Part shown: one piece after another, positions 42,718-55,785 of the stretch
Layout of the letters: every line of letters begins with the position of its first letter
Numbering within the stretch: the stretch's first letter is position 1
NCBI GenBank assembly: GCA_050257555.1
Contig: JBLMXB010000028.1
Location: 1,149 to 65,148, forward strand
Direction: 5' to 3'
Source: Hyphomicrobiales bacterium
Lineage (GTDB): Bacteria; Eisenbacteria; RBG-16-71-46; SZUA-252
DNA: 64,000 nt
Program-made: the position numbers and the translations under genes
The notes under the pieces: generated by a model
The model's database searches: none
The model's input: the letters and a program-made list of their open reading frames with translations, nothing else
What the model was told of the DNA's origin: nothing

Positions 42718-45700
42718 TCAGCGAATGATGGCGACGCGTCCCGTGAAGGTCTTCCCCGCCGCGCTCATCCGGATGAAGTAGACGCCCGACGCCACCGCGG
42801 TCCCGGCGGACGTGCGGCCGTCCCACGTGATCGAGTGGTAGCCCGGCGTGAACGGATGGGTCGCCACGTTGCGGACCAAGGCGCCCCGCACGTCGTAGAC
42901 CTTGAGATCGACCGGCGCGTCACGCGGGATCGCGAGCATCATCCGGACGTCGGACTGGGACATCGGATTCGACCCGATGATCCGGAACGCGAACTCCTTC
43001 GGCAGCGCCGTCTCGCCGTCCTCCACGGCCGTCGGAGTCGATTCGAGCACGGTGAAGGGCTCGGAGATCCACGATCCCATCGCCCCCAGACCGTCCACCG
43101 CCACCAGCTCCAGGATGCCGTTCGTCGTCTCCGGGCCGATCACGAGGAACGAGTAGTTGTGCCCCTGGATCTCCGGCGCGACCATCCGCCAGCTCTCTCC
43201 GCCGTCGAACGAATACCAGAGCTCGTAATAGAGCGCGGCGTGACCGTTCGGGTCGTCCCAGGCCAGGTTGATGTGCGCTCCCGCCGGATACGACTTCGGC
43301 TGGCGCGCCTCTCCCTTGTTCTCGTCGAGCCCCGACGACGACACCATCTTCGGCTTGAGGACGCGGACGTAGTCGGTCCCCTGGAACCACGAGGCGTCCT
43401 TCACCTCGCCGATCATCTCCACGGCGACGTTGTCCCCGGTCGGCAGGATGCCGACCAGCTGGATCCGCGGGAACTTGAACGCCGCCTCCTCGAGTCCGTT
43501 CCCGTCCTTGTCGTCGTAGCCGATCGGGGCGTCCGGAACGACGCCGATCGTCCGGTTCAGGAGCACGGTCGACGGATCGATCTCCCGGGCTTCGTAGCCC
43601 GCGATCGGCTCCGCCAGCCCGCTGACCCAGTTGCCGTTCGACGCCCGGTTCAGCGTGTTCGGATCGAGATCGACCATCGCGCCCACGACGCCGACGTGCA
43701 GGTTCGCCTCGACGTCGATCAGCGGGTCCGTCAGGTCGTTGCACTGGATCCGGAGCGCCCCCGAGTAGTCGCCGTCGGCGAGGCCGGTGGCCGTGAACGT
43801 CACGTTCATGTCGACGTGCCCGCCGGCCGGCACGACGCCGGAATTCGGGGAGACCGTGAGCCAACCCGGGAGCCGCGAGAACCGGAGCCGCAGGTTGTTC
43901 TTCACGTAGGCCTGGTTGTACGCGACCTGGAGCCCGATGTCCTTCGTCGCGTTCTGGATGCCGATGGTCGCCTCGTTCAGGCGGGTCCCGTCCATCTGCA
44001 GGTATTGGAAGTCGATCGTCCCGCTCGGATAGAGGATCACCTCGAACGTGTACGGACCGCCACTCGAGTAGCGCGGCACCCCCGCGTACTCCACGATGAA
44101 CCGCGTCCCGTCGTACTGCGCGTAGACGGCCCCGGCGCTACGCAGGTCGAGGTCGTCCCAGAACGGCGCGAGCAGGTTCTCCGGCGTGGAGGTGCTCGTG
44201 TTCGGGAGCGTCGTGTTCGAGAGCGACGTCGCGCTGCTCGTGAACGAGAGCCACCCGTTGGAGCAGACGCGGTACTCGGTGAACGTGTTCCCGTAGAACG
44301 GGAACGGGAACGGCAGCGGGAACGGTCCGACGTTCTGATCGTCGCCGTTCACCGGCAGGTGCGTCCCCGTGCTCGTGATGTCGACCCAGTCGAACGGCGT
44401 GCCCTGCACCGGATCGTCGCTGTCCGCGTACCGGTAGCCGTACGCGTCGGGTCCGCCCGAGGCCAGGGCGGCGGGTCCGCCCGGCTCGCCGGGCTGATCC
44501 TTCCCCGTCTCGGCCGACGGATGCGCCTGCACGGCCGCGGGGAGCATCACCAGCCCCTCCGCGCTCCAGGTCAGATCGCTCCCGCCGGTGTTGTCCATCC
44601 GGAGGATCTTGGTCTTCGTCTCCGCCGTCGGCCCCAGCGTCGTGGCGAGCGCCGCGCGCACGGAGTTGGCCCCCATCGAAGCCTCGGGCGGGATGTACGC
44701 CACGCCCGTGAGGCCGACCGACAGGGCGCCGTTCGGATCGTTGCTCTCGACCAGGAGCTGTCCCAGGCACGGGTTGGGCGGGACGCACGGATTGGGCGGG
44801 CGGAACCGCACGGTCAGCGCCCTCCCCGCCCGGTTTCCGAGCGTGAACGGAACCGCGGGCGGATCGACCAGCTGCCAGCTCGGATCGACGATCGAGAGGG
44901 AGCGGATCTCCACCACGTCGCTGCCCGAGTTCTGGATGTCGACGGTCAGCTCGCGTTCCTGCCCGATGTACAGCCACCCGAAGTCGAGCGCCGCGGGCGT
45001 CGCCGCCACGTGCGGCGTGCCGACGGCGACGAGCGTCGCCGGCAGGTTCGTGACGCCCTCGTCGGGATCGTTGCTCGCCAGCCGGAGCGTGCCGGCGTAC
45101 GTGCCTCCGAAGAGGTCCGCGGAGTTGAACGTCACCTGGATCGGCAGCGAGCCTCCCGGCGGAATCGTGCCCGACGACGGGCTGGCGACGAGCCAGTCGG
45201 GGGTCGTGCGGAACTCGATCGCCAGGTTGTCGTGCACGTACGCGTCGTTGTAGACGACCGTGAGGCCGTCGTCCTTCGTCGCGTTCTGGATTCCGATCGT
45301 GGCCTCGTTCAGCCGCGTCCCCTGCATCGACAGGTACTGGAACATGATCCGACCGGACGGATAGAGGATCACCTCGAACGTGTACGGTCCGCCGGAGGAG
45401 TATCGCGGCACGGCCACGAACGAGAGGATGAACCGCGTGCCGTCGCGGTACGTGTAGAGCCGCTGGACCGAGCCGGGATTCAGATCGTCCCAGAAGGGAG
45501 CGAGCAGGTTCTCCGGCACGCCGCTTCCGCTGTTCGGGAGCGGCTGGTTCGTCAGCGCGGTGAGCGTGCTCGTGAACGAGAGCCACCCGTTCGTGCAGAC
45601 GTTGATCGTGTTGAACGCGTTCCCGTAGAACGGGAAGTCGAAGCCGATCGGGACGCCCTGGAGATTGGCGTCGTCCCCCGTCAGGGTCAGCGGGGTTCCG

Positions 45701-48700
45701 ATCGCGGTGAGGTCGACCCAGTCGAAGGCCGGCCCGTTCGGATCGTCGCTATCCCGCCACGTGTACCCGAACATGTCGGGCCCGCCGGTCCCCCGGATCC
45801 CCTGCCGCGGATCGACGGCCTCCTTCCCGAGGACGAGCTCGTCGTACGTCGGCACCGACGTCGCGGTGAGCGTCGTGCCCACGACGAACGTCAGGTCGCT
45901 CCCTCCCTGGTTCTCGACCGACACGGTCTGCATGGACGAAGCCGGGATCGGGAGCGTCGCCGAGAGCGACGCCGGCGAGACGGCGATGTCCGGCGCGACC
46001 AGCCCGGCTCCGGAGAGCGCGACCGGGTAGGCCGGCGTGTCGGGATCGTTGGAATGGATGGTCAAGGTCGCCGGCCTCGGTCCCGCCGTGGGCGGCCCGA
46101 ACGAGACGAAGACGACGGCGTTCGCGAGCGGCGGGACCGTGAAGCTCCGGTTGTCCACGCCGTACGCGGGATCGCTCATCGTGATGTCGCTCACGACGAG
46201 CGCGTCGGTGCCCCGGTTCTGGATCGTCAGCTCCCGGATCCCGGGGAATCCGATGAAGACGTTCCCGAATTCCACCGGATCGGGCGTCGCCGCGATGTCC
46301 GGTACCCCCGTCACGGTCAGTCGCGCCGGGACCTCGAGCTCTGGCAGGACCGGGTCGTTCCCCTGGATCCGCACCGCGCCCTCGTAGACGCCGCCGAACA
46401 GGTCGGCCGCGTTGAAGCCGACGTTCAGGTCGACGAACCCGCCCGGAGGCACCGTCCCCGACGCCGGGCTCACGGTGAGGAACCGGGCCGGCGGACGGAA
46501 GCGGACCGCGAGGGAGTTCTTGATGTACGTCGCGTTGAACACGACCTGGAGCCCGTCGTTCCGATCCTGGTTCTGGATGCCGATCGTCCCGCTCGTCTTC
46601 AGCGCCATGTTCATCGTCAGATACTGGTAGAGGATCGTGCCGTTGGGATAGAGCACGATCTCGAACGTATTCGTTCCGGTATCGCTGAGGCGGGTCACGT
46701 CCTGGTACTGGATGACCAGCTTCGTGCCGTCGTTGTAGTAGTACGCGTGCTGGACGGTCGAGAAGTTGAAGTCGTCCCAGTAGACCGCGAGCAGGTTCTC
46801 CGGCACCGTGCTCCCGGTGTTCGGGATCGTGGTGTTCGTGTACGTGGTCTTCGTGCTCGTGAACGAGACGAAGCCGTTCGTGCAGATCCGGAACGAGTCG
46901 AACGAATTCCCGTAGAACGGGAACGAGAACCCGATCGGATAGGGACCGGTGTTCTGGTCGTCCCCCGTCATCGGGATCTGCGTCCCCACGGTCCGGACGT
47001 CGACCCAGGAGAACGCCGGTCCGTCCGGCTCGTCGCTGTCCTTGTACGTGTAGCCGAACACGTCGGGGCCGCCGGACTTGAGCGGGGCGGGACCCGACTG
47101 CACGTCCGCCTCTCCCTTGCCGACCGGCACGTTGTCCGCGTCGGTCCCGACCGTCACGGAGCCCGACGGCGCGTTCGTCACGGTCTCGGCCGTGAACGTG
47201 AAGTCGCTCCCTCCCGAGTTCGACACCCGGAGCGGGCGGCTCGTCGCGGTGTTCGTCAGCAGAGCGACGTCGAATGCGGTCGGTGACACCGAGAACGACG
47301 GCGCCGGCACGGCCGCGCCCGTCACCGCTACCGCGAGCGACGGGGCGTCCGGGTCGTTGCTCTCGATCGTGAGCGTCGCCGCGAGGGCGGCCGGCGCGGT
47401 CGGAGCGTACGTGACCGTGACCGCCTGGCCCGAGAGCGGGTGGAGCGTGAACGACGTCGGCGACGCCGTCAGCGTCCCGTCGCTGGACTGGATCCCGGTC
47501 ACCACCAGGTCATCGGTCCCCGGATTGGTGACCAGGAGGGTCTTCTCCGGCGTCGCGCCGACGAAGATGGTCCCGTAGTCGAGCGACGTCGGGTTCACGG
47601 CGATGTCGGGCGCGCCGATCACGTGGAGCGACGCGGGGAGCGAGACGTTCGGCTGTGCCGGGTCGTTGCTTTGGATCGGGATCGTCCCCTGGAACGTCCC
47701 GCCGTTCAATCCCGCGGCGTCGAACCGGACCTGGACCGTGGCGCTCTGGCCGGCCAGGACCCGCCCCGACGTGGGGGTGACGGAGAGCCACTGACGGAGC
47801 GGCGCGATCCGCACCGCGAGCCCGTCCCGCAGATACGTCGTGTTGAACGCGACCGTCAATCCGACCGACTTCGACGCGTTCTGGATCCCGGCCGTCGCGC
47901 TGTTCGTGGGCGAGCCGAGGGAGAGGTACTGGTACCGGATCTCCCCGTTCGGATAGAGGATCGCCTCGAACGTGTACGGGCCGCCCGTCTGGTAGTGGTT
48001 GACGTCGACCCACGCGACGATGAACCGCGCCCCGTCGTTGTACGTGTAGACGTGACCGGTGGCGGCGAAGTCGAGGTCGTCCCACATCGGCGCCACGAGG
48101 TTGGCCGGGGCGCCGCTGTTCGGGAGCGGCTGGTTGTCGTACGACGTCGCGCCGTCGCTGAACGAGAGCCACCCGTTCGTGCAGACGCGGACGTCGGTGA
48201 ACGTGGCCCCGTAGAACGGGAAGTCGAAGCCGATCGGGATGGCGGGAGACGTCGCGTCGTCTCCGGAGAGCGGCTGGAGATCGCCGACGGCGGTCAGGTC
48301 GACCCAGTCGAACGCCGGGCCGCCGGGCTCGTCACTGTCGAGCCAGCGGTACCCGTACCCGTCCGGACCACCCTTGCTCTCCGCGACCGGCCCCACCCGC
48401 GGGTCGGTCTCCCCCTTCGCGAACGGCTGGTAGTCGTAGACCACCGGCTGCGAGAAGGCGAGCTCGGGCGTCGGGATCTGGTAGTCGAGCGTCCCCTGCG
48501 CCACGTTCTGGATCGTGAGGGTCTGCGTGGCCGTCGCGCCGGTCAGGAGGTCGGCCGAGAACGAGGGAGGCGACGCCGCGATCATCGGCGCGCCGAGCGT
48601 CGTCCCCGTCGCCACGTTCGACAGTCCGCCGGCGTTGTTGAACTCGTCGAACGCCTTGATCGCGAAGTAGTACGGCGTGCTGAAGGCCAGGCCGCCCACT

Positions 48701-50217
48701 TCGAACGACTCGGCGGCTCCCGCCGACTGGGGATCGGGACCGGCCGCCAGGGTCGCCGACGGGAAGGTCGCGTCCGTGATCGGCGCGGTCGAGTACCGGA
48801 TCTCGTACCGGGTCGCGCGGCCGGTGTTGCCGTCGTCGCCCGTCGCGGTCCAGGTGAGCCGCATCGTGTTCGAGCCGGGGTCGCTGGTCATGAGATCGGC
48901 GATCGTCCCCGGCGGCGTGTCGTCGGGCTCCGCAATCGTCATGAACGCGTTCAGCCGGCCGTTCGTGACGCACTTCCCCTGGAGGGACGGCTTCACGTCC
49001 GCGGCGTTCAGGACCAGGTTCTTGATCTGGAGGTTCGGGACGTTTGGATACCGCCCCATGGCCAGCGCCACGACGCCCGCGACGTGCGGGGTCGCCATCG
49101 ACGTGCCCGAGAGCAGGCCGTAGCTGTTCCCGGGGAGCGTCGAGAGGATGCTGACGCCCGGGGCGGCGATGTCGACCGTCGTCGCGCCGTAGTTCGAGAA
49201 CGACGCGAGGTTGTCGTTGTTGTCGGTCGCGGCGACCGAGATGATGTACGGCGTGTCGTACGCGGCCGGGTACTGAGGCGTGATGTCGCTGTTCTGCCCG
49301 GAGTTCCCCGCGGCGGCCACGAAGAGCTGGCCCGCCGCGCCGGCGGCGTTGATCGCGTCGAGCAGCGCCTGCGAGAAACCGCCGCCGCCCCAGGAGTTGC
49401 TGGTCAGGCGGACGCCGACCGTGATCGCGTACTGGATGCCGAGGATCGCGTCCGACGTCGAGCCGCTGCCCCCCGCGCTCAGGAACTTGATCGCGACGAT
49501 CTTCGCCTGCCAGTTGACGCCGACGACGCCCGTGTTGTTGTTCCCCGCCGCGGCGATCGTGCCCGACGTGTGGGTCCCGTGGCCGTTGTCGTCGAACGGA
49601 TCGCCGTCGTGGTTCACGAAGTCGTATCCGTGCACGTCGTCGACGTACCCGTTCCCGTCGTCGTCGATCCCGTTGCCGGGGATCTCGCCCGGGTTGGTCC
49701 AGATGTTGGCGGACAGGTCCGGGTGGTTGTAGTCGACGCCCGTGTCGATCACGCCAACCTTGAGGTTCGGGTCACCGGTGAACTGGTCCCACGCGAGCTG
49801 GGCGCTGATGTCCGCCCCGGGCGTGCCGCCGGTCTGGCCGGTGTTGTGGAGACCGTACATCTCCGGATACCGCGGATCGTTCGGCGCCACGTCGGCCGTC
49901 AGGACGTAGTTCGGCTCGATGTAGACGACGTTCGGGTTGTGGGCGTACCGGGCGATGGCCGCTTCGACCGAGACGCCGCTCAACTTCCAGTGCTCGGCGC
50001 CGATGAAGTCGAACCGGTGTGCGACGGCGGCGTGCAGGTCGCGCTGGATCTGGCCGCGCGAGGAGGCCGCGGCGCCGGGACGGAACTTGATGATCACTTC
50101 ACCGGGAATGGTGCGGGCGTCGGGGGCCGCCGCCCGGGCGACCGGGGGACCGAGGAGCAGGAATACGAGCAGCAGGGACACGAACGACGGCACAAGCCAT
50201 CGCGGCTGGGAATGCAT
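42718..50217 (-). CDS. Giant secreted subtilisin-like (S8) serine protease with I9 propeptide, FN3-like domain, four tandem modules of about 435 aa, and FlgD-Ig/T9SS-type C-terminal domain
   Basis: ATG 50217, preceded by AAGGAGG. Signal LVPSFVSLLLVFLLLGPPVARAAA. Catalytic triad contexts: VGVIDTGVDYNHPDL, DNGHGTHTSGTIAA and LSGTSMATPHVAGV. Four modules each begin GGPD-x-(Y/F)GY and contain FPFYG, CTNGW(L/V)SF, WDD(L/F), GIQN and SNDP motifs. C-terminal tail: VDLKVYDVRGALVRNV...WDGRTSAGTAVASGVYFIRM...RVAIIR. 2499 aa. Confidence 0.9.
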   Translation of the reverse strand: MHSQPRWLVPSFVSLLLVFLLLGPPVARAAAPDARTIPGEVIIKFRPGAAASSRGQIQRDLHAAVAHRFDFIGAEHWKLSGVSVEAAIARYAHNPNVVYIEPNYVLTADVAPNDPRYPEMYGLHNTGQTGGTPGADISAQLAWDQFTGDPNLKVGVIDTGVDYNHPDLSANIWTNPGEIPGNGIDDDGNGYVDDVHGYDFVNHDGDPFDDNGHGTHTSGTIAAAGNNNTGVVGVNWQAKIVAIKFLSAGGSGSTSDAILGIQYAITVGVRLTSNSWGGGGFSQALLDAINAAGAAGQLFVAAAGNSGQNSDITPQYPAAYDTPYIISVAATDNNDNLASFSNYGATTVDIAAPGVSILSTLPGNSYGLLSGTSMATPHVAGVVALAMGRYPNVPNLQIKNLVLNAADVKPSLQGKCVTNGRLNAFMTIAEPDDTPPGTIADLMTSDPGSNTMRLTWTATGDDGNTGRATRYEIRYSTAPITDATFPSATLAAGPDPQSAGAAESFEVGGLAFSTPYYFAIKAFDEFNNAGGLSNVATGTTLGAPMIAASPPSFSADLLTGATATQTLTIQNVAQGTLDYQIPTPELAFSQPVVYDYQPFAKGETDPRVGPVAESKGGPDGYGYRWLDSDEPGGPAFDWVDLTAVGDLQPLSGDDATSPAIPIGFDFPFYGATFTDVRVCTNGWLSFSDGATSYDNQPLPNSGAPANLVAPMWDDLDFAATGHVYTYNDGARFIVAWVDVNHYQTGGPYTFEAILYPNGEIRYQYLSLGSPTNSATAGIQNASKSVGLTVAFNTTYLRDGLAVRIAPLRQWLSVTPTSGRVLAGQSATVQVRFDAAGLNGGTFQGTIPIQSNDPAQPNVSLPASLHVIGAPDIAVNPTSLDYGTIFVGATPEKTLLVTNPGTDDLVVTGIQSSDGTLTASPTSFTLHPLSGQAVTVTYAPTAPAALAATLTIESNDPDAPSLAVAVTGAAVPAPSFSVSPTAFDVALLTNTATSRPLRVSNSGGSDFTFTAETVTNAPSGSVTVGTDADNVPVGKGEADVQSGPAPLKSGGPDVFGYTYKDSDEPDGPAFSWVDVRTVGTQIPMTGDDQNTGPYPIGFSFPFYGNSFDSFRICTNGFVSFTSTKTTYTNTTIPNTGSTVPENLLAVYWDDFNFSTVQHAYYYNDGTKLVIQYQDVTRLSDTGTNTFEIVLYPNGTILYQYLTMNMALKTSGTIGIQNQDRNDGLQVVFNATYIKNSLAVRFRPPARFLTVSPASGTVPPGGFVDLNVGFNAADLFGGVYEGAVRIQGNDPVLPELEVPARLTVTGVPDIAATPDPVEFGNVFIGFPGIRELTIQNRGTDALVVSDITMSDPAYGVDNRSFTVPPLANAVVFVSFGPPTAGPRPATLTIHSNDPDTPAYPVALSGAGLVAPDIAVSPASLSATLPIPASSMQTVSVENQGGSDLTFVVGTTLTATSVPTYDELVLGKEAVDPRQGIRGTGGPDMFGYTWRDSDDPNGPAFDWVDLTAIGTPLTLTGDDANLQGVPIGFDFPFYGNAFNTINVCTNGWLSFTSTLTALTNQPLPNSGSGVPENLLAPFWDDLNPGSVQRLYTYRDGTRFILSFVAVPRYSSGGPYTFEVILYPSGRIMFQYLSMQGTRLNEATIGIQNATKDDGLTVVYNDAYVHDNLAIEFRTTPDWLVASPSSGTIPPGGSLPIQVTFNSADLFGGTYAGTLRLASNDPDEGVTNLPATLVAVGTPHVAATPAALDFGWLYIGQERELTVDIQNSGSDVVEIRSLSIVDPSWQLVDPPAVPFTLGNRAGRALTVRFRPPNPCVPPNPCLGQLLVESNDPNGALSVGLTGVAYIPPEASMGANSVRAALATTLGPTAETKTKILRMDNTGGSDLTWSAEGLVMLPAAVQAHPSAETGKDQPGEPGGPAALASGGPDAYGYRYADSDDPVQGTPFDWVDITSTGTHLPVNGDDQNVGPFPLPFPFPFYGNTFTEYRVCSNGWLSFTSSATSLSNTTLPNTSTSTPENLLAPFWDDLDLRSAGAVYAQYDGTRFIVEYAGVPRYSSGGPYTFEVILYPSGTIDFQYLQMDGTRLNEATIGIQNATKDIGLQVAYNQAYVKNNLRLRFSRLPGWLTVSPNSGVVPAGGHVDMNVTFTATGLADGDYSGALRIQCNDLTDPLIDVEANLHVGVVGAMVDLDPNTLNRASNGNWVSGLAEPIAGYEAREIDPSTVLLNRTIGVVPDAPIGYDDKDGNGLEEAAFKFPRIQLVGILPTGDNVAVEMIGEVKDASWFQGTDYVRVLKPKMVSSSGLDENKGEARQPKSYPAGAHINLAWDDPNGHAALYYELWYSFDGGESWRMVAPEIQGHNYSFLVIGPETTNGILELVAVDGLGAMGSWISEPFTVLESTPTAVEDGETALPKEFAFRIIGSNPMSQSDVRMMLAIPRDAPVDLKVYDVRGALVRNVATHPFTPGYHSITWDGRTSAGTAVASGVYFIRMSAAGKTFTGRVAIIR
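43545..48585 (-). repeat. Four in-frame tandem coding repeats (period about 1.29-1.33 kb) inside the S8 gene
   Basis: The GGPD anchor codons lie near 48368, 47068, 45781 and 44451. DNA-level similarity is visible, for example gaacgagagccacccgttcgtgcagac and cccgtagaacgggaa recur near 48165, 46865, 45575 and 44255. The boundaries are approximate. Confidence 0.8.
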
Positions 50218-50442: not shown

Positions 50443-51885
50443 TCAACCTCGCATCGCGTCCGATCGGCGATCCGATGCCGATTTCCCCTCGGTCGTCGAG
50501 GATTCCACCCACCCCGCGCGCTCGAGCGCCTTCCACGCGTCCTCCTCGCCGAGCGCGATCAGTCGCTCGGCCTCCGCCGGGGCGTAGTCGAGCACGCCGC
50601 CGGGGAGCGCCCGGTCGGGCTCGACGATGCAGAGCCGCCGCGGCAGCGCGTCCCCCTTCCACGATGGCGGGAGCGCCCGCATCTCCTCCTGGAGGTCGCG
50701 CCAGTTCGCGAGATCGAGGAATCGACCCCAGATCGCGATCGGGTCGCGCGTCGGGGTCTCGGCCGGGGGCGCGCCGCTCGGCGCCACGACGATCACGAGG
50801 ACCGCGTCCGCGTCGTCGTAGAGGGCGGCGCGGAGCGGGTGCATCGAGATCGCGAGCGGATCGATGTACTCGCGGTCCTTCACCCGTCCCGGCTCGAAGA
50901 TCACCGGAATGGCGGAGGAGGCGACGGCGGCCTCGAGCACCTCGTCCGGCGACGTGACCGGGACCGTCTCGCCGAGCACGGACTCGACGCGCTCCCGGAA
51001 CGCCGGGGACGGATCGGGCCAGTTCACGAAGTACGTGATCCGCCCGTTGTCGAGCGCGAGCCCGCTCACGATCAGATGGAGATCGCGCGCGACGAGACGC
51101 GCCGGGTCGCCGGACGCCGCGAGGCGCCGCACCAGCCGGCGCCGCGCGGCGCCGCCCCAGATGCCCCGCGCTTTCGTCTCGGGCAGGAGGCCGAGGAACG
51201 CGCGGCGGATCAGGTGGCCGAGGCGGCCGGGCCGGTTCGCGAGCCACGCCGTGAGCGCGAGGAGGAGGAGCGTGGCGCTGAAGCGGTGCGGCCAGGGAAG
51301 GGCGAAGATCCACGCGATCAGGTGGATGGCGGCCCACGCGGCGAGGAGGGCGGCGCCCCAGGCCCGGGCGCGCTTGCCGGTCCTCGGGTCGCTGAAGCGG
51401 CTCAGGAGCGCTTCGGCGCCCCGCGAGGAGCGGAGCATGAGGAGGCCGGCGCCGGCGACGACCGCCCACGCGAGGAGATCGAGGATCGCCGACGGGACGC
51501 CGATCTGCGCCACCGGGCGGCGGAGGTAGAACGCGGGGACGCTCAGCTCGGCCGAGCCGATCCACGTCACGAGCAGCTCGATCACGCCGAGCACCAGGAG
51601 GAAGCCGCCGACGGCCCGCCACGCGAGCGCGCTCAGGCGCATCCCGATCGTGCCGGGTCGCATCTGCTTCCAGGCCGCCTCGAGCCCGCCGGCGCGGAAG
51701 CCCTGGGCCACCCACGCGACCGCGTTCAGCGCGCCGGCCGACGCGCCGGAGACGATCGCCGGCCGGAGCCCGAGCTGCTCGAGCGCCTTCAGCACGCCGA
51801 CCTCGTAACCGCCGAGCGCGCCGCCGCCCGACAGCACGACCGCGATCCGCCGGAACGGAAGGTCACGCCGGAGCCTGCGGGCCAT
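50443..51885 (-). CDS. Patatin-like phospholipase with central transmembrane segments
   Basis: Oxyanion motif VVLSGGGALGGYEVG and nucleophile elbow VSGASAGALNA. Hydrophobic stretches lie in the middle (LSALAWRAVGGFLLVLGVIELLV, LLAWAVVAGAGLLML, ALLAAWAAIHLIAWIFAL). 480 aa. Confidence 0.8.
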   Translation of the reverse strand: MARRLRRDLPFRRIAVVLSGGGALGGYEVGVLKALEQLGLRPAIVSGASAGALNAVAWVAQGFRAGGLEAAWKQMRPGTIGMRLSALAWRAVGGFLLVLGVIELLVTWIGSAELSVPAFYLRRPVAQIGVPSAILDLLAWAVVAGAGLLMLRSSRGAEALLSRFSDPRTGKRARAWGAALLAAWAAIHLIAWIFALPWPHRFSATLLLLALTAWLANRPGRLGHLIRRAFLGLLPETKARGIWGGAARRRLVRRLAASGDPARLVARDLHLIVSGLALDNGRITYFVNWPDPSPAFRERVESVLGETVPVTSPDEVLEAAVASSAIPVIFEPGRVKDREYIDPLAISMHPLRAALYDDADAVLVIVVAPSGAPPAETPTRDPIAIWGRFLDLANWRDLQEEMRALPPSWKGDALPRRLCIVEPDRALPGGVLDYAPAEAERLIALGEEDAWKALERAGWVESSTTEGKSASDRRSDAMRG

Positions 51886-52515
51886 GGCCGGATCATACGG
51901 GATTGTCGGGCGGGGCCGAAACGCCTACCCTTCGCGGCGCATGACGCCCGACTTCGACGTGCCCCTCGCCGTCCGGACGCTCCGCGCCGCCGACCCCGCC
52001 CTCGGCCGCCTGATCGAGCGGGTGGGGCCGTGCCGCTTCCGCGTCGACCCCGCGCAGAGCCCCTTCCACGCGCTGGCCGAGTCGATCACGTACCAGCAGC
52101 TCCACGGCAAGGCGGCCGAGGCGATCTTCGCGCGTGTCCGCGCGCTCTACGCGCCCCGTCGCTTCCCCACCCCGGCCGAGCTCCTCGCGACGCCCGACGA
52201 CGCGCTCCGCGCGGCCGGTCTCTCGCGCGCGAAGCTCGTCGCCATGAAGGACCTCGCGGCGAAGACCGCCGACGGGACCGTGCCGGGCGTGGCGCGCCTC
52301 CGCCGGCTCGACGACGAGGAGATCATCGAGCGGCTGACGACGATCCGCGGGGTGGGACGCTGGACGGTGGAGATGTTCCTGATGTTCCGGCTCGGCCGCC
52401 CGGACGTCCTGCCGGTCACCGACTTCGGGGTCCGGAAGGGCTACGCGGTCGCGTTCCGGAGGCGGGAGCTGCCGGCGCCGAAGTGGCTCGCCGCGCGCGG
52501 CGCGCGGTGGCGGCC

Positions 52516-55785
<3,270 letters not shown>

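Follow-up and report, generated by a model that had tools for sequence, protein, structure and literature searches.

What would a four-fold repeat contribute to a secreted bacterial protease? This question is raised by a 64,000-nucleotide (nt) stretch of contig JBLMXB010000028.1 (positions 1,149 to 65,148 of the forward strand; assembly GCA_050257555.1), referred to here as the window, from a genome registered as Hyphomicrobiales bacterium and placed among the Eisenbacteria by GTDB. One gene of the window encodes an S8 family protease of 2499 amino acids (aa), in which the subtilase domain is followed by four large modules, each composed of immunoglobulin-like (Ig) domains and a core domain that resembles the animal NIDO domain. 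Based on the evidence presented below, we favor, with a probability of roughly 55%, the reading that the Ig domains would form a stalk whose four NIDO-like knobs hold the protease, of the deseasin type and exported by the type IX secretion system (T9SS), on a polymeric substrate.

Four diverged modules behind the protease domain

The initial annotation of this locus described four tandem modules behind the subtilase and FN3 domains of the 2499-aa protease, repeated with a DNA period of about 1.3 kb and each containing a domain of about 200 aa. Motif positions and module alignments bore out this description. The motif GGPDxxGY occurs at aa 616, 1049, 1478, and 1921, which gives periods of 433, 429, and 443 aa (∼1.3 kb), and the motifs FPFYG, [TS]NG[WF][LV]SF, WDD[LF], and GIQN of the ∼200-aa domain are present in exactly four copies apiece, in register. 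SNDP-type motifs were found seven times (aa 850, 953, 1286, 1389, 1715, 1825, and 2159). As defined here, the block of modules spans 43687..48588 (Table 1), and its earlier placement at 43545..48585 was correct. When aligned end to end over 370–429 columns, the modules were 40–47% identical to one another in amino acid sequence, and module 1 matched module 4 with a BLASTP E-value of 2e-83; the cores alone (∼200 aa) were 48–57% identical between copies. The DNA identity between modules was 57–61% overall, 61–70% in the cores, and 66–83% in the best 120-nt windows, so that the value of ∼70% estimated by eye for the best-conserved stretches was about right. The longest exact DNA match between modules was 32 nt. 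Divergence between the copies was too great for the program Tandem Repeats Finder to detect the 1.3-kb period.

Relationship of the core to the animal NIDO domain

The core had been described as reminiscent of the animal NIDO domain, and profile comparisons supported this likeness, on partial coverage of the domain model. The Pfam NIDO family (PF06119) scored 65.4 bits on the whole protein in four stretches (cut-off, 25), and 28.9, 21.2, 20.4, and 26.3 bits on the single modules. Among 42 core copies taken from the 2499-aa protein and its homologues, 38 matched NIDO individually at E ≤ 0.01 (best, 1.3e-10), and the only other family found on these copies was one marginal Big_4 match. Every PF06119 match was confined to approximately positions 2–60 of the 186 positions of the model, i.e., to about its first third. 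In a profile–profile comparison with hhalign, the alignment of the 42 bacterial copies matched animal nidogen-type N-termini with a probability of 97.7% (E = 1.5e-12, 116 columns), and the match extended over GDD, F.F[FY]G, TNG..SF, APF[WL].D.D, G.VYY, and the TFQ.[IV]L strand. The animal alignment was built from retrieved records only, including Myotis nidogen-1, a mouse-like fragment, a nidogen-2-like fragment, a snail protein, and a sponge protein; a human sequence served solely as a query. These alignments support the homology of the core to the animal NIDO domain, whereas full-length membership of the Pfam NIDO model is not supported.

Animal NIDO (PF06119 / SM00539) is a matrix domain carried by nidogen-1/2, alpha-tectorin, mucin-4, SNED1, Drosophila mesh, and C. 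elegans DEX-1, and the bacterial core shares its motifs in the same order: GDD, F-x-F-[FY]-G, [TN]NG..SF, AP[FY][WL].D[LV]D, G.VYY, a strand ending in W, and TFQ/TFE.[IV]L. Both forms are extracellular and mostly beta. The bacterial form alone has an extra N-terminal GGPDxxGYxxxDSD...W.D segment, and it lacks a helical insert of ∼25 residues that is present in animal NIDO and shows up as a gap in the hhalign alignment; in the NIDO domain of SNED1, a protein outside the present alignment, a helix is predicted at a comparable place (doi 10.1101/2020.07.27.223107). Unlike its animal counterpart, the bacterial form has a single Cys and no disulphide pattern, and in this protein it is nested in an Ig domain, as described below, and repeated four-fold behind a protease.

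In the animal sequences P0270, P0290, P0315, and P0320, the homology with the bacterial cores starts at GDD and F.F[FY]G, upstream of the start of the Pfam model, which lies just before TNG. For SNED1, the SMART annotation of the NIDO domain does not begin until aa 103 (doi 10.1101/2020.07.27.223107). Judging from these alignments, the initial strands of the fold may fall outside the annotated boundaries of animal NIDO domains. A literature search on bacterial NIDO domains returned no paper on the subject, and one CASP11 paper mentioned nidogen in its reference list only.

A NIDO-like domain nested in a split Ig domain

We predicted the structure of the module 3 core with AlphaFold2 from the 42 diverse copies. 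The model was all-beta, with eleven strands, a predicted local distance difference test (pLDDT) score of 91.4, and a predicted template modeling (pTM) score of 0.86. The GGPD...DSD motif, which the initial annotation had regarded as the end of a linker, lies instead within the folded domain, because the pLDDT averaged 94–97 per ten-residue block over model residues 11–40, where this motif is located.

The Pfam Ig matches located just behind each core always started in the middle of the model, and the flanks of the cores were therefore compared with the intact Ig domains of the same modules. Positions 1–43 of the intact Ig were matched by the flank ahead of the core (88.9%) and positions 43–99 by the flank behind it (98.0%); when joined, the two corresponded to positions 1–98 (98.7%, E = 2.4e-16). 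In an AlphaFold model of the whole of module 1 (pLDDT 87.9), the 40-residue half before the core formed four strands with a pLDDT of 91–97, and the linker had a pLDDT of 61–79. Since the flanks complement each other as one Ig domain, the linker and the NIDO-like domain are nested in a split choice-of-anchor-D Ig. The alignments and the predicted model together show a module that consists of a split Ig domain with the NIDO-like domain nested in it, followed in modules 1–3 by an intact Ig domain. The protein has seven Ig-type domains, of which four are interrupted by this insertion. The earlier description of a short Ig-like segment followed by one or two Ig domains with SNDP motifs was thus right in its Ig assignment, but the short segment is the N-terminal half of the split Ig and not a separate unit.

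The assignment to choice-of-anchor-D-like Ig domains was itself supported by both sequence and fold. The choice-of-anchor D model NF012200 scored 144.6 bits in five stretches (cut-off, 45), PF22544 (HYDIN-VesB-CFA65 Ig) scored 138.5 bits (cut-off, 25.5), and ASH scored 85.2 bits (cut-off, 27); in total, the family scan gave four partial NIDO matches and five choice-of-anchor-D / HYDIN-VesB Ig matches. In a Foldseek search with the Ig parts of the module model, the PapD-like domain of HYDIN (2E6J) matched with a target-normalized template modeling score (TMt) of 0.81 and a root mean square deviation of 2.0, chains of the ciliary central pair (7SQC) matched at E = 7e-12, and 2QSV matched at E = 8e-10. 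The Ig domains of the modules therefore resemble, in both sequence and fold, the choice-of-anchor D domains and the ASH/PapD-like Ig domains of HYDIN, CFAP65, CEP192, and P. gingivalis 2QSV; they differ from the latter in that four of the seven copies are interrupted after ∼43 residues by an insertion of ∼225 residues (linker and NIDO-like domain). The profile searches and structure predictions proposed for a module against NIDO, choice-of-anchor D, and ASH thus yielded NIDO by profile and Ig by both profile and fold.

Age of the repeat and conservation of its copies

With the third core (module 3) as the query, more than 118 full-length homologues of about 2450–2510 aa were found, all of which carry PF06119. 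The named ones come from Candidatus Eisenbacteria, Krumholzibacteriia, Acidobacteria (Acidobacteriota), and Polarisedimenticolia, as metagenome-assembled genomes (MAGs), and their records are named S8 family serine peptidase, subtilisin family serine protease, or choice-of-anchor D protein. These entries share the architecture and length of the 2499-aa protein and the positions of its four NIDO-like domains, with module 3 cores that are 54–84% identical. Four cores were present at nearly the same positions in 112 of 120 proteins, a count that includes the 2499-aa protein itself, and five cores were present in the remaining 8. The five-copy relatives are ∼2900 aa long, and one related Eisenbacteria MAG (L005) has three copies. 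To our knowledge, none of these homologous entries has been studied experimentally.

The source genome is a short-read-style MAG (3.09 Mb in 179 contigs, 95.4% complete, with 6.75% contamination), and in such an assembly a four-fold repeat could arise by artefactual collapse or expansion. Against this stand the 57–61% DNA identity between copies, the longest shared word of 32 nt, and the frame that is open throughout, as well as the four copies in 112 of 120 homologues, several of which lie on contigs of 0.6–3.5 Mb. An assembly artefact was rejected on the DNA divergence between copies and the copy number of the homologues, and we regard its probability as practically negligible, in agreement with the initial annotation.

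A tree of 113 cores from 27 proteins, including the 2499-aa protein, showed that the copies of close orthologues cluster by position and not by protein; the amplification therefore predates the divergence of the close orthologues. In more distant lineages, some adjacent copies were sisters, which indicates later re-duplication or gene conversion in those branches of the tree. We also compared the identity of each part of the protein with that in three orthologues, using only the ranking of identity and of the nonsynonymous substitution rate (dN). The values were 78, 79, and 66% for the S8 domain, 72, 71, and 55% for the NIDO-like cores, 35–64% for the Ig parts, and 25–44% for the C-terminal tail, so that the cores rank second in conservation, after the catalytic domain. 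About 20 residues are invariant across the 42 diverged core copies, and many of them are polar or aromatic (D14, Y18, D22, D48, W109, D110, D111, and Q177). Taken as comparative evidence, the copy numbers, positional clades, and core conservation show that the four-fold amplification is ancient and that each copy has been kept by selection, as had been proposed when the repeat was called an old, maintained amplification.

These data also bear on the main rival reading, according to which the modules would be only a spacer or stalk that keeps the catalytic head off the outer membrane, or carries it through a capsule or S-layer, without binding any ligand. The modules consist mostly of Ig-type beta-sandwiches, as in adhesin stalks, and a copy number that varies from three to five among relatives fits the tuning of length. 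The NIDO-like cores, however, are clearly more conserved than the Ig domains, which argues against a mere spacer, and neither the invariant polar and aromatic residues nor the separate lineage kept by each position among close orthologues would be expected of one. We consider a pure spacer unlikely.

Catalytic domain and predicted export

The S8 domain scored 212.6 bits with PF00082, and its catalytic triad is intact (D158 in DTG, H213 in HGTH, and S373 in GTSMA). By far the closest solved structure was that of deseasin MCP-01 (3VV3), which matched aa 111–435 with 369 bits (E = 3.9e-109), compared with 170 bits for the next best structure. By sequence similarity, the catalytic domain is of the deseasin type, nearer to deseasin than to other subtilisins. 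MCP-01 is a collagenolytic S8 subtilase of Pseudoalteromonas sp. SM9913, and, like the present protein, it is secreted and carries non-catalytic beta structure C-terminal to its protease domain. The PKD domain of MCP-01 reportedly binds collagen, according to work by Zhao and colleagues in 2008 and Wang and colleagues in 2010. MCP-01 is ∼830 aa long and has a single PKD domain, whereas the 2499-aa protein has an FN3 domain, seven Ig-type domains, four NIDO-like domains, and a T9SS-type tail.

The predicted signal peptide was called by manual reading of the sequence only, and shows a basic n-region, the hydrophobic stretch LVPSFVSLLLVFLLL, and then ARA-AA. The fervidolysin-type propeptide that follows scored 45.9 bits (cut-off, 21), and the FN3 domain behind the catalytic domain scored 25.4 bits (cut-off, 25). 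At the C-terminus, the FlgD-Ig type tail scored 41.9 bits with PF13860 (cut-off, 27). The same genome encodes a PorU-type sortase (NF033707, 481 bits; cut-off, 420) and a SprA translocon (TIGR04189), whose best piece scored 241.6 bits, with 547.9 bits listed for a further piece together with its frame neighbors (cut-off, 200). Tails of the FlgD-Ig type exceeded the cut-off in 49 open reading frames (ORFs) genome-wide, three of them within the window, in agreement with a separate earlier note on the shared tail. On these profile matches, export of the 2499-aa protease by the T9SS is likely.

Another explanation is that the C-terminal region would be an appendage for maturation or inhibition, shed on activation and without a role in the mature enzyme. 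It is general knowledge that many S8 enzymes are processed C-terminally and that T9SS cargo lose their C-terminal domain. We nevertheless judge this explanation very unlikely, given that purifying selection acts on 1,600 residues, that the copy number is constant in at least two phyla, and that the same domain is present in proteins without a protease.

Abundance and other settings of the NIDO-like domain

A profile of the four cores matched 25,253 of 1.84 billion cluster representatives (clusters at 50% identity) at E ≤ 0.001, and 2,942 at E ≤ 1e-30. The protein thus represents nothing new in kind, since its NIDO-like domain belongs to a family that is abundant, already named in Pfam, and annotated in public records. 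The matching proteins often hold 2–14 copies, and about 57 of the best 150 matches also carry an S8 domain. Other carriers are enzyme-free giant proteins with PKD, DUF11, FG-GAP, or TIG repeats, in which the domain occurs 1–14 times. The presence of the domain in such proteins is typical of binding modules, and we counted it in favor of a binding role for the knobs.

The NIDO-like domain could also be catalytic or self-processing, acting on glycans or cleaving the protein itself, in which case the protease would be a multi-enzyme. Its invariant acidic and amide residues (DSD, GDD, WDD, and QN) and a fold without a characterized relative are compatible with this idea. We hold it to be highly improbable, as up to 14 tandem copies occur in proteins with adhesin-type repeats only, and no enzyme family was found for the domain in Pfam, NCBIfam, or a PDB sequence search; with the four-copy profile, the last gave only a chance-level match (E = 0.08). 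Nor has any enzymatic activity been reported for animal NIDO (doi 10.1101/2020.07.27.223107).

In the giant proteins P0080, P0033, and P0034, 7–14 NIDO-like cores follow one another with a period of ∼200 aa and without intervening Ig domains, so that nesting in an Ig is only one of the layouts in which the domain occurs. Within the source genome, the sole other carrier of the NIDO-like domain is a paralogue, an S8 frame of 2407 aa on the minus strand of contig C5, with one NIDO-like core and the same FlgD-Ig tail (C5:13437-13610). Among cultured Bacteroidota, Carboxylicivirga fragile N1Y90 (L011, NZ_JAFMVD010000021.1:56477-65112) has a frame of ∼2668 aa with an S8 domain and two NIDO-like cores, 30% identical, and this strain is a possible experimental host.

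Viral predicted structures were searched with Foldseek using the model of 45142..45816 (aa 1468–1692). A protein of an uncultured Caudovirales (A0A6J5P7T5, 507 aa) showed a NIDO-like fold (E = 9e-13, query-normalized TM-score [TMq] 0.69, 24% identity), and cyanophage proteins and a Xanthomonas phage tail-fibre protein gave weaker fold matches. The modeled folds suggest that phages use a NIDO-like domain too, possibly for binding.

Proposed role of the modules

In the reading we favor, the deseasin-type subtilase would be exported by Sec and then probably secreted by the T9SS, and the rod of ASH/choice-of-anchor-D Ig domains would serve as a stalk. The four NIDO-like knobs would stick out sideways as polyvalent binders of an insoluble polymer, either protein or glycan, in detritus or on cell surfaces. 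Such binding would keep the protease on its substrate, as the PKD domain reportedly does in deseasin MCP-01 and carbohydrate-binding modules do in glycosidases. The conserved acidic clusters (DSD, GDD, and WDD), together with QN, are candidates for a Ca2+ or ligand site.

Several points weigh against this proposal. For the NIDO domains of animals and bacteria alike, no ligand is known, and animal NIDO has neither an assigned function nor a solved structure (doi 10.1101/2020.07.27.223107). The Foldseek search with the core against the PDB found no solved relative (best E = 0.12, TM-score ≤ 0.22), which fits that published statement, and there is therefore no binding site to borrow. The ratios of dN to the synonymous rate (dN/dS) were computed but distrusted, being unreliable at a GC content of 94% at third codon positions, the value across the 2499-codon frame. 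Under the curated T9SS type-A model TIGR04183, the tail scored 19.8 bits, below the cut-off of 23. Finally, the neighborhoods of three orthologues were entirely different and gave no functional hint, so that no operon partner is indicated.

A more specific proposal is that the NIDO-like domain is a calcium-dependent ligand-binding knob, and that, through its nesting in ASH Ig domains, a polyvalent "bottle-brush" is formed by which enzymes and adhesins are tethered to polymers. This idea is tentative, and we would not expect it to hold in this full form.

Other features of the gene and its surroundings

The features of the gene and the export loci are listed in Table 1. Between module 4 and the tail, the region at aa 2178–2414 gave no Pfam family in the scan except a weak BNR motif. 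No other large part of the protein is less conserved than this region, which shows 42–43% identity to close orthologues and 32–43% across the three orthologues. The neighbors of the gene are a patatin-like lipase upstream (phospholipase, 50443..51885) and MgtC/DUF4010 downstream. An 857-aa ORF two genes upstream (51893..54466, minus strand) had no Pfam match. A scan for terminators and promoters downstream of the gene found none.

Table 1. Coordinates of the protease gene, its domains and modules (positions in the window), and the export loci elsewhere in the genome.
Feature	Residues (aa)	Position	Strand	Family or composition
Whole gene, secreted S8 protease	1-2499	42718..50217	-	one uninterrupted frame, 2499 codons
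N-terminal signal peptide (predicted)	1-30	50128..50217	-	read by eye from sequence
Fervidolysin-type N-terminal propeptide	27-103	49909..50139	-	PF22148
S8 catalytic domain, deseasin type	111-435	48913..49887	-	PF00082
FN3 domain	442-525	48643..48894	-	PF00041
Module 1	544-976	47290..48588	-	half Ig 544-585, linker, NIDO-like core 613-808, half Ig 809-868, intact Ig 869-970
Module 2	977-1405	46003..47289	-	half Ig, linker, NIDO-like core 1046-1244, half Ig 1245-1304, intact Ig 1305-1403
Module 3	1406-1848	44674..46002	-	half Ig, linker, NIDO-like core 1475-1673, half Ig 1674-1733, intact Ig 1734-1845
Module 4	1849-2177	43687..44673	-	half Ig, linker, NIDO-like core 1918-2117, half Ig 2118-2177; no second Ig
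Region without assigned family (∼237 aa)	2178-2414	42976..43686	-	between module 4 and tail
C-terminal FlgD-Ig type domain, presumed T9SS sorting signal	2415-2499	42721..42975	-	PF13860
PorU-type sortase and SprA translocon loci		C126:2063-5419; C1:31632-36140		profile matches in the same genome

Implications

If the NIDO-like domain were a calcium-dependent knob, bacteria and phages, and not animals, would hold the main diversity of NIDO domains and may be the source of animal NIDO, and the Cys-poor bacterial copies would offer a tractable route to a first NIDO structure and function. In number, the bacterial relatives far exceed the animal ones. Glycosylation is not expected in them, they have a single Cys, and their fold is predicted with confidence, so that structure determination and binding assays could practicably start from them. 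The 2499-aa protein itself belongs to a set of giant exoproteases of the T9SS type that is conserved in Eisenbacteria- and Acidobacteria-like bacteria of soil and sediment, and the members of this set probably attack particulate protein.

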